Source of the DNA: a virus
Taxonomy: Duplodnaviria > Heunggongvirae > Uroviricota > Caudoviricetes
Virus record (IMG/VR): IMGVR_UViG_638341084_000008
Direction: 5' to 3' (one strand)
DNA: 30,598 nucleotides
The notes under the pieces were generated by a model. That model ran no database searches. It was not told where the DNA came from and worked only from the letters and a program-made list of their open reading frames with translations. Shown here piece by piece: positions 1-3,683 of the stretch (the stretch's first letter is position 1; each line of letters begins with the position of its first letter). Both the position numbers and the translations under genes were made by a program.

Positions 1-117
1 AAACACCATGACGAACTGCATGCGGATACCGTGGCATTTGAAGAGAAGTATGGCTCCCAGCTGGAGCTGATATTTCGTTTTATCGATCGTGCGCTGGCAA
101 TTGGCGTGCTGGCCTGA
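1..117 (+). CDS. 3' end of an upstream ORF of unknown function (partial; open from the window edge to TGA at 115-117)
   Basis: Frame 1 is open from position 1 to the stop at 115-117, ending ...[15 protein letters not shown]. It lies directly upstream of Q, where lambdoid phages carry nin-region genes. No family was recognised. Confidence 0.3.
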
Positions 118-134
118 TTTTGTGGAGAACGTTG

Positions 135-500
135 ATGCGTGATATTCAAATGGTTCTTGAACGTTGGGGGGCATGGGTGGCAAATAATCACGAGGATGTC
201 ACCTGGTCGTCTATTGCTGCAGGATTTAAAGGACTAATCCCTTCAAAAGTAAAATCCCGCCCGCAATGTTGTGACGATGATGCGATGATCATTTGTGGGT
301 GCATGGCTCGCCTGAAAAAGAACAACAGCGATTTGCACGATTTATTAGTGGATTATTATGTAGGTGGTATGACGTTTATGGCGCTTGCCCGTAAACATGG
401 GCGTTCTGATTGCTGGGTTGGGCGTTTATTGCAAAAGGCTGAAGGTGTAGTTGATGGCATGTTAATGATGTTAGAAATTGAGCTAGAGATGGATCGTTAG
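135..500 (+). CDS. Q: Late-gene antitermination protein Q (QuuD/phage-82-type small Q)
   Basis: The ORF translation from the ATG at 135 ([60 protein letters not shown]...) matches my memory of DLP12 QuuD-type Q proteins. It sits immediately upstream of the lysis cassette. The track start at 120 is a TTG, so the ATG at 135 is preferred. Confidence 0.8.
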
Positions 501-511
501 AAGACCTCTTA

Positions 512-585
512 TTGAGGGGGTAATTGAATCAGTTTAATGTGTGGGGAGTCGATTTATTCTCCCCATTTTATTTAATTAATTTACT
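512..585 (+). promoter_or_regulatory. Candidate late promoter / Q-utilisation region with hairpin, immediately downstream of Q
   Basis: TTGAGG (512-517), a 17-nt spacer and TAATGT (535-540) form a sigma-70-like -35/-10 pair. A hairpin GGGGAG..CTCCCC (543-564) is followed by a T-rich tract. The position after Q is where lambdoid PR'/qut normally lies. This is read by eye only. Confidence 0.3.
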
Positions 586-1031
586 TAAGGTTTTAATTCA
601 TCAAGACGTTGTTGGATAGTGTTTTTGCTTGCGTTGTCTGTTATAGCCATTTGTTGTACTTGCCCCATTGCCATTTGAGTTTCCATCCACATATCGGCCC
701 ACACTTTTGTATCGTTATTAACTTGAGCGATAGTAAATCTGACTTTTGATACCGGGGTTGTTGAATAGGCATTGCCGATTAACATTTGTCCAAAAACAGC
801 AGACCCGCCTTCCAGTTCTTTACCACATATAACACTGCTGTTATCAGCGTTGTAAATTATCAACCCTCTACTATTGCAGTAATTCACAAGGGCATCTTTG
901 ACTTTATCTTTTGTCGTATTTTGATAAACCCCCTCAGGTTTTCCTGATTGAGTTTTTTTTATCAATGGTACGGAAGAAGTACAACCTGAAATGATAGTTG
1001 CGCTAAGTAATAGTACAGTCATTTTATTCAT
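585..1031 (-). CDS. Predicted lipoprotein of unknown function, antisense to late transcription (moron candidate)
   Basis: 148-aa ORF with an N-terminal signal peptide and lipobox (MNKMTVLLLSATIISGC, Cys as the +1 residue). It sits on the opposite strand between Q and the late genes, the same position as the antisense porin morons in DLP12 and PA-2. Confidence 0.55.
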   Translation of the reverse strand: MNKMTVLLLSATIISGCTSSVPLIKKTQSGKPEGVYQNTTKDKVKDALVNYCNSRGLIIYNADNSSVICGKELEGGSAVFGQMLIGNAYSTTPVSKVRFTIAQVNNDTKVWADMWMETQMAMGQVQQMAITDNASKNTIQQRLDELKP

Positions 1032-1160
1032 GTTTCTTATCCATTGTTAAGGGCATACCTACACAATTATTTTTATTGGAGATGAATAATCAACCGTTTA
1101 CAATCGTAAAAAATCAAATATGCTGTTAAGAGTGGTTACTTCGCCACACAACTTAAACCC

Positions 1161-1179
1161 GCCGCTGAGCGGTTTTTTT
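1161..1179 (+). terminator. Weak hairpin plus T7 run, candidate intrinsic terminator (possible tR'-like element)
   Basis: CCGC-TGA-GCGG short stem followed by TTTTTTT (1173-1179). The stem is only 4 bp, so this is weak. Confidence 0.3.
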
Positions 1180-1299
1180 GTACCTGTAAACTTGGTGCAG
1201 TACAGTAAACACGCTGGTGGTCGTGAATACTGACCTTTTATCTTGCTGGCTTTTTAGACAAGAGTTATTGGTATGTCATGTTAACCAGAAGGGAAAAAG

Positions 1300-1505
1300 A
1301 CATGCTAAAACAGCAAGATATGACAGAAACCGCCGCCGCAGTCCTTCATTTCTTACCTGCTGACAAGTGGGTAACGCCACGCATGATGACGAGAACTACC
1401 GGAGTAAGCGAAGCCCGGTGCCAGTTAATACTGACTCAGTTAGTTCTGGCGGGTCTGGCGAAGGATAACGGCGGATACGGGAATAAATTCAGACGCTGCC
1501 AGTAA
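1300..1505 (+). CDS. Small putative winged-helix DNA-binding protein, possibly PapI/FaeA-like
   Basis: ATG at 1300 is preceded by AAGGGAAA; the track's upstream start at 1278 is less well placed. The segment VLHFLPADKWVTPRMMTRTTGVSEARCQLILTQLVLAGLA resembles the PapI/FaeA regulator pattern from memory. The family assignment is tentative. Confidence 0.45.
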
Positions 1506-1655
1506 TGGCGGTTTCCTGCTGTGAAAATGGGCGGCTGGTGGGTGTTGGTAGCACCTGCCAGCCATTCGCTCATGCTTACTGGTCACAAGCGAACCACGGC
1601 CCACTGCTTTAGCGCAAAAGCAGAGTGAGCCTACCAGAGTTACGCTTACTGATCC

Positions 1656-2708
1656 ATGAAAAATACTGTAAAAATAAACAGTGTTGATTTAATCAACGCT
1701 GATTGCCTGCATTTTATTCAGTCCCTGCCTGATGATTCCATTGACCTGATTGTTACCGATCCGCCGTACTTCAAGGTGAAACCCAACGGTTGGGACAATC
1801 AGTGGAAAGGGGACGAAGATTACCTTAAGTGGCTGGACCACTGTCTGGCCCAGTTCTGGCGGGTGTTAAAACCTGCCGGAAGCCTTTACCTGTTCTGTGG
1901 GCATCGCCTGGCATCTGATATTGAGATCATGATGCGTGAACGTTTCAACGTGCTTAACCATATCATCTGGGCGAAGCCGTCCGGACGTTGGAATGGGTGT
2001 AATAAAGAAAGTCTGCGCGCATATTTTCCTGCCACAGAGCGCGTTCTGTTTGCTGAACATTACCAGGGGCCATATCGCGGCAAAAGTGACGGCTATGCAG
2101 CAAAAGAAAGGGAACTCAAACAGCACATAATGGCACCGCTGATATCGTATTTCAGGGATGCTCGTGCCGAACTGGGTATAACGGCAAAACAAATTGCCGA
2201 AGCCACAGGTAAGAAAAATATGGTTTCCCACTGGTTTGGTGCCAGTCAGTGGCAGTTGCCGAATGAGGCTGACTATCGGAAGTTACAGGCACTGTTTTCC
2301 CGTATAGCGGCAGAGAAGTTTCAGGAACAACAACTGGAACAACCACACCACCAGCTGGTGGCATCTTATGATTCACTGAATCGCAAATATTCTGAATTGC
2401 TGGATGAGTTTAAATCTCTCCGGCGCTATTTCTCCGTATCAGTCTCCGTGCCTTATACCGATGTCTGGANGCATAAACCCGTTCAGTTCTACCCGGGNAA
2501 ACATCCGTGTGAGAAACCGGCGGATATGCTCNGGCAAATAATCAATGCCAGTAGTCGNCCNGGTGATCTGGTTGCTGATTTTTTTATGGGATCCGGTTCC
2601 ACAATAAAAGCAGCAATGGCGCTGGGGCGTCGGGCCTTAGGTGTTGAGCTTGAGTCAGAGCGGTTTAACCAGACAGTGAAAGAGATAAACGAGCTGGTGG
2701 GGAAATAA
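1656..2708 (+). CDS. DNA methyltransferase, beta-class amino-methyltransferase (N6-adenine or N4-cytosine)
   Basis: Catalytic motif IV DPPY (IVTDPPYF) lies near the N-terminus and the AdoMet-binding motif I (FFMGSGST) near the C-terminus, which is the beta-class order. The gene contains five N bases (2470, 2498, 2513, 2568, 2571) that give X residues in the translation. Confidence 0.85.
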
Positions 2709-2714
2709 TCTGGT

Positions 2715-2736
2715 GGCCACGTCAGGTGGCCTTTTT
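2715..2736 (+). terminator. Intrinsic terminator between the methyltransferase gene and the holin
   Basis: GGCCAC-GTCAG-GTGGCC hairpin followed by TTTTT. It would be read through under Q antitermination. Confidence 0.55.
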
Positions 2737-2775
2737 ATTTCCATTACACAGCACCCGCATCTGCGAGGTGGGGTT

Positions 2776-2991
2776 ATGAAATCCATGGATAAGTTAACAA
2801 CGGGTGTCGCCTATGGCACCTCAGCAGGTAGTGCCGGGTACTGGTTTTTACAGTTGCTCGATAAAGTCACGCCCTCACAGTGGGCGGCAATAGGTGTGCT
2901 GGGTAGTCTGGTATTTGGCTTGCTGACGTATCTGACAAACCTTTATTTCAAGATTAAAGAAGACAAGCGTAAGGCTGCACGGGGAGAGTAA
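2776..2991 (+). CDS. S: Holin, phage-21 S-type (pinholin) with dual-start motif
   Basis: [71 protein letters not shown] closely matches my memory of S21. The two starts (MKSMDK.. and MDK..) are the classic holin/antiholin arrangement. GAGGTGGGG precedes the ATG at 2776; the track start at 2713 is a GTG inside the terminator. Confidence 0.85.
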
Positions 2992-2995
2992 TTCA

Positions 2996-3340
2996 ATGAC
3001 TCAAAACTATGAACTGATTGTGAAAGGGATCCGCAATTTTGAGAATAAAGTTACGGTAACTGTAGCGTTACGGGACAAAAAACGCTTTGACGGTGAAATT
3101 TTTGACCTGGACATCTCGCTGGACCGTGTTGAAGGTGCCGCGCTGGAGTTTTATGAGGCAGCAGCCAGAAGGAGCATCAGACAGGTCTTCCTGGATGTTG
3201 CTGCCGGGTTATGTGAAGGGGATGAGCAGTCGCCGGAAAAGCGCCCCGTAATTTTAGAGGCGCAGGATGTGTTGATAACCTACAGAGGAAAACTACCGGG
3301 AATAATTACGGGTTCTCTGAAGAGTCCGCCGAAATGGTAA
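2996..3340 (+). CDS. Hypothetical protein inserted between holin and endolysin
   Basis: 114-aa ORF starting 4 nt after the holin stop, with GGGGAGAG upstream. No family was recognised. The lysis cassette is normally S-R-Rz without intervening genes. Confidence 0.5.
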   Translation: MTQNYELIVKGIRNFENKVTVTVALRDKKRFDGEIFDLDISLDRVEGAALEFYEAAARRSIRQVFLDVAAGLCEGDEQSPEKRPVILEAQDVLITYRGKLPGIITGSLKSPPKW

Positions 3341-3578
3341 TTTTACCAGCATATTTTTCATCCAGTAATACAGCAAGCCGCCTGAAAGAGTCTTGTTGTT
3401 CCTGAGACCATTTGGGATTGCATGATTCAAACTGGATTGATGCCAGCGTTGATTGCATCTGTTCCCTTGGAATTGAGAATGCCAGATATGAGAAGGCGAC
3501 GGTAAGGGTATTCACGTCTTCCCGAAGCCTGGAAATGCTGTCGAGCAACTCCTGTAGAGAAATGGTGTTATTGTCCAT
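3306..3578 (-). CDS. Hypothetical protein, convergent with and overlapping the 3' end of the 2996..3340 gene
   Basis: 90-aa ORF on the minus strand with GAGGA about 7 nt upstream of its ATG. It fills the 344-bp gap between the upstream unknown gene and the endolysin. No family was recognised. Confidence 0.4.
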   Translation of the reverse strand: MDNNTISLQELLDSISRLREDVNTLTVAFSYLAFSIPREQMQSTLASIQFESCNPKWSQEQQDSFRRLAVLLDEKYAGKITISADSSENP

Positions 3579-3683
3579 AAATAATCCTCATGATTGTATT
3601 GACCTGTTAGCAGCCTGAGGCAACAGGCTGGAACTGATAAACATATCCAGGGCTCAGAAACCGATAAATCCTGATAAATATCC

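Follow-up and report, generated by a model that had tools for sequence, protein, structure and literature searches.

Among lambdoid phages, the late promoter PR' of lambda is known to be constitutively active, and genes of the moron type for outer-membrane proteins are familiar, including those for Bor, Lom and the porins NmpC and Lc. The nmpC gene lies in the qsr' region of prophage DLP12, in the order quuD - nmpC - essD/rrrD/rzpD, and phage PA-2 with its porin gene lc provides a further parallel. The lipoprotein genes cor and llp lie among tail or receptor-binding genes. For the Shiga toxin (Stx) phages of Escherichia coli Sakai, both the activity of PR' in lysogens and its start site have been documented (Sy et al. 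2020, PMC7547250). In both phages, 258 nt separate the PR' start mapped by differential RNA sequencing (dRNA-seq) from the tR' 3' end mapped by Term-seq, and the same authors predicted PR' to be constitutive in Stx phages (PMC7547250). The antiterminator family PF06530 corresponds to the Q21/Q933W family in the assignment of Yin et al. Here we examined the virus record IMGVR_UViG_638341084_000008, a stretch of 30,598 nucleotides referred to below as the window, with emphasis on a lipoprotein gene that lies on the minus strand between the antiterminator gene Q and the late genes.

The window is the late half of a lambdoid prophage, and positions 1-1700 are 99.6% identical to the Escherichia phages PhiR40_1 and PhiR55_1. 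We consider it likely that a cassette carrying the lipoprotein gene was spliced between Q and PR', with PR' now residing about 600 bp from Q at 1097-1124, its start near A1131 and its terminator at 1161-1179. The original prediction of a minus-strand lipoprotein gene between Q and the late genes was borne out: the open reading frame (ORF) at 585-1031 has a lipobox and conserved homologues, and the late genes that follow encode a methylase, a P21-type holin, a lysozyme and Rz. The Q gene itself (135-500, plus strand) encodes a QuuD-like protein of 121 aa that matches the entire 118-position profile of PF06530 with an expect value (E) of 1.8e-51. This Q is 83-93% identical to DLP12 QuuD (84%) and the Q proteins of H-19B, ETEC4071 and MB06022, while its overall identity to the Q of E. 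coli strain 582 is 64%.

The location of PR' was deduced from alignments with related phages. Homology between the window and H-19B covers positions 133-499, where the Q DNA is 77% identical, and then resumes at 1096-1184; the two stretches are only 56 nt apart in H-19B, where the counterpart of 1096-1184 overlaps and follows the end of a longer Q gene. The second stretch contains a sigma-70 promoter on the plus strand with a -35 element TTTACA (1097-1102), a 16-nt spacer and a -10 element TATGCT (1119-1124). Our promoter scan listed sites with at least 9 of 12 consensus positions; this one scored 9 and is among only six such plus-strand sites in the first 3 kb. It aligns with TTTACG-16-TATCAT in H-19B and in the Sakai phages Sp5 and Sp15. 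A promoter-hairpin block is common to the window, H-19B, Sp5, Sp15, the ETEC4071 Stx2e phage and DLP12, and the five-way and six-way alignments follow the pattern GTTTAC(A/G)..CGTAAAAA..(A/T)TAT..TG.TAAGAGTGGTTAC, after which come a GC hairpin and a T-run. From the A 7 nt past TATCAT to the last T of the tR' T-run, the distance in Sp5 as well as in Sp15 is exactly 258 nt, and this fit with the published interval indicates that the homologous promoter is the mapped PR'. Our coordinates for Sp5 and Sp15 are offset from the published ones by a constant 142 and 135, respectively, a difference that another version of the genome record could explain. The Sakai PR' start A aligns with A1131, the predicted start in the window. 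A search of the literature on the DLP12 late promoter returned nothing useful.

The extent of homology differs with the type of Q. Phages 720R4 and Ayreon, whose Q proteins of 250 aa belong to the Q-lambda family (PF03589 in Pfam), are homologous to the window only from position 1156, five bases ahead of the terminator stem. Since phages of the Q-lambda family share homology only from 1156 and those with a PF06530 Q from 1096, the segment 1096-1155 appears to travel with the Q family. This pattern would be expected of a segment that comprises the promoter, the Q-binding element and the pause region, while the terminator and the sequence downstream would constitute a common late module. The 13-mer TAAGAGTGGTTAC (1127-1139, plus strand) spans the predicted start A1131. 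It is identical in PhiR40_1, H-19B, strain 582, ETEC4071, Sp5 and Sp15 and is present in DLP12 as well, and it is a candidate for the Q-loading or pause region. In strain 582 (Q at 1536-1907 and PR' at 2660-2700 of its locus), the C-terminal half of Q and the -35 element and spacer of PR' diverge together while the start-site 13-mer is kept; this single case may reflect co-variation of Q with its binding element.

Further features were noted around the start of PR'. No clear -10-like pause hexamer was identified near the promoter. A small hairpin of GUGGU, a loop and GCCAC is predicted at 1132-1147, corresponding to +2 to +17 of the PR' RNA; H-19B retains the pairing, as does DLP12 by way of G-U pairs, and the hairpin may be linked to pausing or Q loading. 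The 92-nt promoter-terminator block (1091-1182) was found at a coverage of at least 80% in 3,221 of 5,426 complete E. coli genomes, with no annotated feature beneath it in the 30 hits listed. The GenBank record of PhiR40_1 has a hypothetical protein of 37 aa at 1120-1233. Since this ORF covers the -10 element, the start site and the terminator, it is unlikely to be a real gene.

Whereas Q directly adjoins PR' in H-19B, Sp5 and Sp15, 596 bp separate the two in the window. The intervening cargo cassette (about 495-1095) is absent from those related phages where Q abuts PR', and its right junction lies at 1095/1096. Six related Q proteins are similar up to a ...LE(M/I)D motif, beyond which they end in unrelated C-terminal tails of 1-24 residues. 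From this divergence, the left junction can be put at about 495, within the 3' end of Q (window about 485-500), and the C-terminal tail of Q seems to be dispensable. The GC content of 501-1100 is 32-40%, in comparison with 44-55% in the flanks, and this AT-rich cassette of about 0.6 kb looks foreign. It has two hallmarks of a moron, in the sense given to the term by Hendrix and Juhala for an autonomous unit of phage cargo, in that it sits between elements adjacent in relatives and its base composition is unlike that of its flanks. The same site holds other cargo elsewhere: the minus-strand porin gene nmpC, together with IS5, in DLP12, and one plus-strand ORF each in ETEC4071 (166 aa) and strain 582 (205 aa). 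Because several prophages carry different cargo there, the junction between Q and PR' is a recurrent docking site. In MB06022, the same site after Q (3069-3593 of its locus) is occupied by a minus-strand gene of the lipocalin family (PF08212), followed by a YbgA-family gene. The lipocalin gene is thus a further example of envelope-type cargo at the junction.

The cassette contains two putative regulatory elements besides the lipoprotein gene. Just after Q, a plus-strand hairpin with an 8-bp stem and a 10-nt loop (541-566; reported as 543-562 by the terminator scan) is followed by AUUUUAUUUAAUU, such that the element as a whole spans 541-575. The RNA fold of 541-566 has an energy of -13 kcal/mol with a z-score of -3.3, and 0 of 200 shuffled sequences folded as well. 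Read on the minus strand, the stem has a z-score of -1.9 and no T-run after it. The 541-575 hairpin would be expected to halt unmodified plus-strand transcription leaving Q. At the other end of the cassette, a candidate promoter for the lipoprotein gene, TTGATT-16-AATAAT (1093-1066, minus strand), was recognized as a 9/12 consensus match in the promoter scan. This site and PR' point away from each other, their -35 hexamers separated by 3 bp, and it predicts a 5' untranslated region of about 27 nt with a weak Shine-Dalgarno sequence. A stronger-looking minus-strand promoter match at 1050-1021 was rejected because it overlaps the start codon and cannot serve the ORF at 585-1031.

The lipoprotein gene (585-1031, minus strand) encodes a protein of 148 aa with a signal peptide at residues 1-16 and a lipobox I-S-G-C at residues 14-17 (nt 992-981). 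Its N-terminus, MNKMTVLLLSATIISG followed by C17, has the charged n-region and hydrophobic h-region expected of a substrate of Lgt and signal peptidase II and conforms to the lipobox pattern [LVI][ASTVI][GAS]C, in agreement with its initial recognition as a lipoprotein. Alignment with 21 homologues of 49-99% identity showed that the pattern L/V/I-x-G/A-C is kept in all of them with Cys17 invariant. C69 and a WxDxWxExQM core are likewise invariant and C52 is nearly so. The Ka/Ks ratio (nonsynonymous to synonymous substitution rates) is 0.15 against the Citrobacter homologue; against the others Ks was saturated, with Ka at 0.21-0.38. By the Lol rule, the residue at +2 governs lipoprotein sorting. 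As this residue is Thr, sorting to the outer membrane is expected, and the protein is probably anchored there facing the periplasm. The AlphaFold2 model is confident and of the alpha+beta type, with a mean predicted local distance difference test (pLDDT) score of 85, and the mature protein of about 131 aa is predicted to adopt a helix-grip-like alpha+beta fold.

The distribution of the family was examined by database searches. The protein matches phrog_3152 of PHROGs (E 1.3e-104), a family of unknown function, and it had no family match in Pfam, NCBIfam or PADLOC. Only 2 of 50,697 phage records encode it, and a profile search returned 823 cluster representatives at 50% identity. Among remote members of the domain family, several have a C-terminal PDZ domain, one a TPR/YfiO (BamD-like) module and one a SHOCT domain. 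The fusions to PDZ or TPR/YfiO fit a periplasmic location.

These elements lead us to propose how the locus may work in the two states of the phage. In the lysogen, the early promoters would be repressed and PR' would fire constitutively, with its transcripts stopping at 1179 at a length of about 49 nt. Meanwhile, nothing would hinder expression of the lipoprotein gene from its own promoter. Since the gene is upstream of PR', it should escape Q control, being neither driven nor opposed by Q-dependent transcription. Once the prophage is induced, polymerases modified by N and arriving from Q would be expected to read past the 541-575 hairpin and to meet the lipoprotein gene head-on. Antisense reading of the gene would be expected only from such N-antiterminated early transcription, during lytic growth. 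Q, acting in trans, would load at 1097-1140 and take the polymerase past 1161-1179 into the late genes. The original prediction had raised the possibility of a conversion or exclusion factor expressed in the lysogen from its own promoter, and such a role for the lipoprotein fits this anatomy and the contexts of the homologues described below. Three points weigh against this proposal. The use of PR' in this phage is predicted from homology and consensus matches. The putative lipoprotein promoter is only a 9/12 consensus match and is not conserved among the homologues. No canonical minus-strand terminator was found 3' of the lipoprotein gene.

What the lipoprotein does was considered in light of the neighborhoods of its homologues. 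At 12 of 21 loci in other genera, a lambda-like tail-tip cluster (TMP-M-L-K-I-J, TMP being the tape-measure gene) harbors the gene in the same orientation, either behind the tape-measure gene or flanked by K and I. The genera are Salmonella, Citrobacter, Jejubacter, Xenorhabdus, Photorhabdus, Morganella, Proteus, Symbiopectobacterium and Haemophilus, in addition to one metagenomic Enterobacteriaceae genome. A promoter-like site lies immediately 5' of the Citrobacter homologue, and both the Citrobacter and the Morganella homologues have a strong terminator 3' of the stop codon. The upstream regions of 11 homologues do not align, providing no sign of a promoter that travels with the gene. Other contexts are a nin-like region in Phytobacter and a Mu-like prophage in Halomonas. 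The gene seems to behave as a mobile moron that prefers tail-tip modules. Such placement, as for cor and llp, suggests superinfection exclusion, and we tentatively propose that the lipoprotein acts in the envelope to exclude incoming phages. Certain observations detract from this proposal: the case for exclusion is drawn from gene neighborhood alone, and neither a sequence profile search of the PDB nor a comparison with BFVD structures gave a significant match. Moreover, about 200 residues at the C-terminus of J of this phage have no counterpart in the J proteins encoded beside the homologues. Because these receptor-binding ends are not shared, no receptor could be inferred. A broader conjecture, which we regard as speculative and doubtful, is that this large unnamed phage-borne envelope family represents a new superinfection-exclusion class that would block a receptor or the periplasmic entry of DNA. 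Its members would be carried as promoter-gene-terminator units in tail-tip operons by the tape-measure gene, K, I or J, with the junction between Q and PR' as a second, Q-independent docking site for expression in the lysogen.

It is also possible, if somewhat improbable, that the lipoprotein serves the fitness or virulence of the host instead, for example through serum resistance like that of Bor or TraT, protection from envelope stress or inhibition of lysozyme. DLP12 has both bor and nmpC, the window has a Lom gene, and the domain has remote relatives in cellular lipoproteins, where it is joined to PDZ or TPR/YfiO modules. One distant homologue adjoins a urocanase gene rather than phage genes. 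However, the protein matches neither Lambda_Bor nor any other Pfam family, and its recurrent placement in tail tips of prophages from Salmonella to Haemophilus is more typical of functions directed by phage against phage, though this is not decisive.

The next question is whether the hairpin at 1161-1179 is the terminator that Q overrides. This element, reported by the terminator scan on the plus strand, consists of GCCGC-TGA-GCGGT (1161-1173) followed by T7 and would occupy +31 to +49 of the PR' transcript. The original prediction had offered it as a possible tR'-like terminator, and its position, homology and conservation support that assignment. The hairpin is retained with differing stems and loops in DLP12, ETEC4071, H-19B and Sp5, and the homologous hairpin in phage Ayreon is annotated as a terminator. 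No other canonical terminator precedes the first late ORF in the window; a weaker candidate is present at 1219-1235. The Sakai Stx phages provide evidence to the contrary: their homologous hairpin is at about +27 to +50 of the PR' RNA, but Term-seq located the 3' end at +258. The Stx hairpin evidently does not stop all transcription, and by analogy the one at 1161-1179 may be leaky as well. Sy et al. 2020 (PMC7547250) did not mention a hairpin at about +27 to +50. In terms of locus coordinates, the Stx GC hairpin with its T7 is at 770-800 in Sp5, at 712-683 on the minus strand in Sp15 and at 1985-2008 in H-19B.

The behavior of Sp5 and Sp15 raises the alternative that PR' is indeed at 1097-1124 but that 1161-1179 is not the main terminator overridden by Q. 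Most transcripts would then end farther downstream, for instance at 1219-1235, where the terminator scan detected a second terminator-like site with a hairpin and a T-rich tail. We consider this alternative unlikely. In DLP12, the homologous hairpin is the sole canonical terminator-like structure from the promoter to essD, and in the phages compared above it has persisted despite changes in both stem and loop sequence. It also opens the module shared with phages of the other Q family, as expected of a terminator that works independently of Q type. As for the Sakai results, an RNA of about 50 nt may have escaped the library preparation or the Northern blots of Sy et al. We retain 1161-1179 as the probable tR'-type terminator.

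The original prediction had also placed a candidate late promoter directly after Q at 512-540, from which Q-modified transcription would run for about 0.6 kb antisense through the lipoprotein gene to the terminator at 1161-1179. There is precedent for such a position, as the late promoter comes directly after or overlaps the end of Q in lambda, 21, 82, H-19B and 933W, and a TTGAGG-17-TAATGT sequence does exist at 512-540. Nevertheless, this site matches only 7 of 12 consensus positions, which is below the scan threshold and no better than chance, given 172 plus-strand sites of at least 7/12 in the first 3 kb. Its start, near 547, would sit within the stem of the 541-566 hairpin. Furthermore, nothing corresponding to 501-584 follows Q in H-19B, DLP12, ETEC4071, MB06022 or strain 582, and the site lies in sequence confined to the cassette. 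The block homologous to PR' of H-19B and the Sakai Stx phages is at 1097-1131, beyond the lipoprotein gene, which contradicts late transcription antisense through it. A late promoter at 512-540 is therefore very unlikely.

Finally, the notion that the ORF at 585-1031 is a chance ORF or a decaying, functionless remnant has next to no probability, since even though it lacks a Pfam or NCBIfam family and is annotated just as a hypothetical protein, its conservation, as judged from an invariant Cys17 and conserved core in 21 homologues down to 49% identity, 823 cluster representatives and a Ka/Ks of 0.15, argues against this to a reasonable standard, and so does its confidently predicted fold (mean pLDDT 85).

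The arrangement at this locus, if correctly interpreted, has consequences for the annotation of prophages. The late promoter of a widespread Q type can be hundreds of bases away from Q. Cargo upstream of PR', such as the lipoprotein, nmpC and lipocalin genes, would escape Q and can be expressed in the lysogen; cargo downstream of tR', such as stx and tRNAs, is bound to lytic induction. This split between upstream and downstream cargo is testable and may help to predict which prophage genes alter the host during lysogeny. The lipoprotein itself is a tractable candidate for a new function in phage exclusion or in the envelope, as PhiR40_1 and PhiR55_1 exist as isolated phages.

Of the 5,426 complete E. 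coli genomes, 185 carry Q, the lipoprotein gene and the PR' block in this full order. The window begins with a gene of the DUF968/YdfU family, followed by Q, the minus-strand ORF, two small ORFs and the DNA methylase gene. Next are the genes for the P21-type holin, a DUF1327 protein, lysozyme and Rz, and then lambda-like head and tail genes; J, Lom, a side tail fiber and IS1 make up the end. The first small ORF of the late operon (1302-1505, plus strand) matches phrog_331, of unknown function. It showed a weak match to a MarR-like helix-turn-helix domain in Pfam (E 0.058), and its region (1278-1505) is common to mEp460, the cdtI phage, Ayreon and Stx2c phages irrespective of Q type. The methylase gene (1656-2708, plus strand; PF01555, E 5.4e-41) comes after the phrog_331 ORF. 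The window has seven ambiguous bases (N), at 2470, 2498, 2532, 2558, 2561, 13010 and 19549; the five in the methylase gene lead to X residues in its product. After J, the segment 23868-29978 contains a Lom/Ail gene, a gene for a side tail fiber of 979 aa and a fiber assembly gene. An inverted second set follows on the minus strand with a C-terminal tail-fiber fragment and an assembly gene, and then the IS1 transposase gene. This segment looks like an invertible or rearranged tail-fiber segment. It shows that the window derives from a prophage and not from the phage isolate.

Compared with known systems, the locus most closely resembles qsr' of DLP12 and the late regions of Stx phages. DLP12 has the same type of Q, a minus-strand gene for an outer-membrane protein between Q and the lysis genes, and the promoter-hairpin block beyond the cargo, 120 nt before essD. 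The two differ in that the cargo is the porin NmpC in DLP12 and the lipoprotein of 148 aa in the window, and in that the hairpin after Q is oriented so as to stop minus-strand transcripts in the former and plus-strand transcripts in the latter. The window also has additional late genes, the phrog_331 ORF and the methylase gene, ahead of the holin gene. The Stx phages H-19B, 933W, Sp5 and Sp15 share a Q of the Q21/933W family with the window and are homologous to it in the -35 element, spacer, -10 element, initial transcribed sequence and first hairpin with its T-run. In contrast to the window, their PR' overlaps the 3' end of a longer Q of 144 aa, and their cargo of tRNAs and stx is downstream of tR' under Q control, while the cargo here is upstream of PR' and should be outside such control. 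The window has no counterpart of the 258-nt region of StxS, the small RNA processed from the PR'-tR' transcript of Stx phages, including its 3' 74 nt and terminator; homology to H-19B and Sp5 ends at 1184, and an Rfam scan of 1-3000 with E up to 1 gave no match, StxS included.

The protein can be compared with two groups of phage lipoproteins. Like Cor of phi80, N15, HK022 and T1 and Llp of T5, which exclude superinfecting phages by blocking their receptor, it is a small phage-encoded lipoprotein. It differs from them in having no sequence or family relation to either in Pfam, PHROGs, NCBIfam or PADLOC, and its mature form is larger. Bor/Iss, the serum resistance protein of lambda, is likewise the product of a minus-strand lipoprotein moron in a lambdoid late region and is presumably expressed from the prophage. 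Unlike Bor/Iss, the window lipoprotein is not a member of the Lambda_Bor family in Pfam, and bor lies downstream of Rz rather than at the junction of Q and PR'. In its regulatory anatomy, the locus is a late cassette of the Q21/933W type, and the inserted moron has a long-known precedent in DLP12 qsr'. Its points of interest are the uncharacterized and fairly large lipoprotein family, and the rule that would distinguish cargo upstream of PR' from cargo downstream of it.

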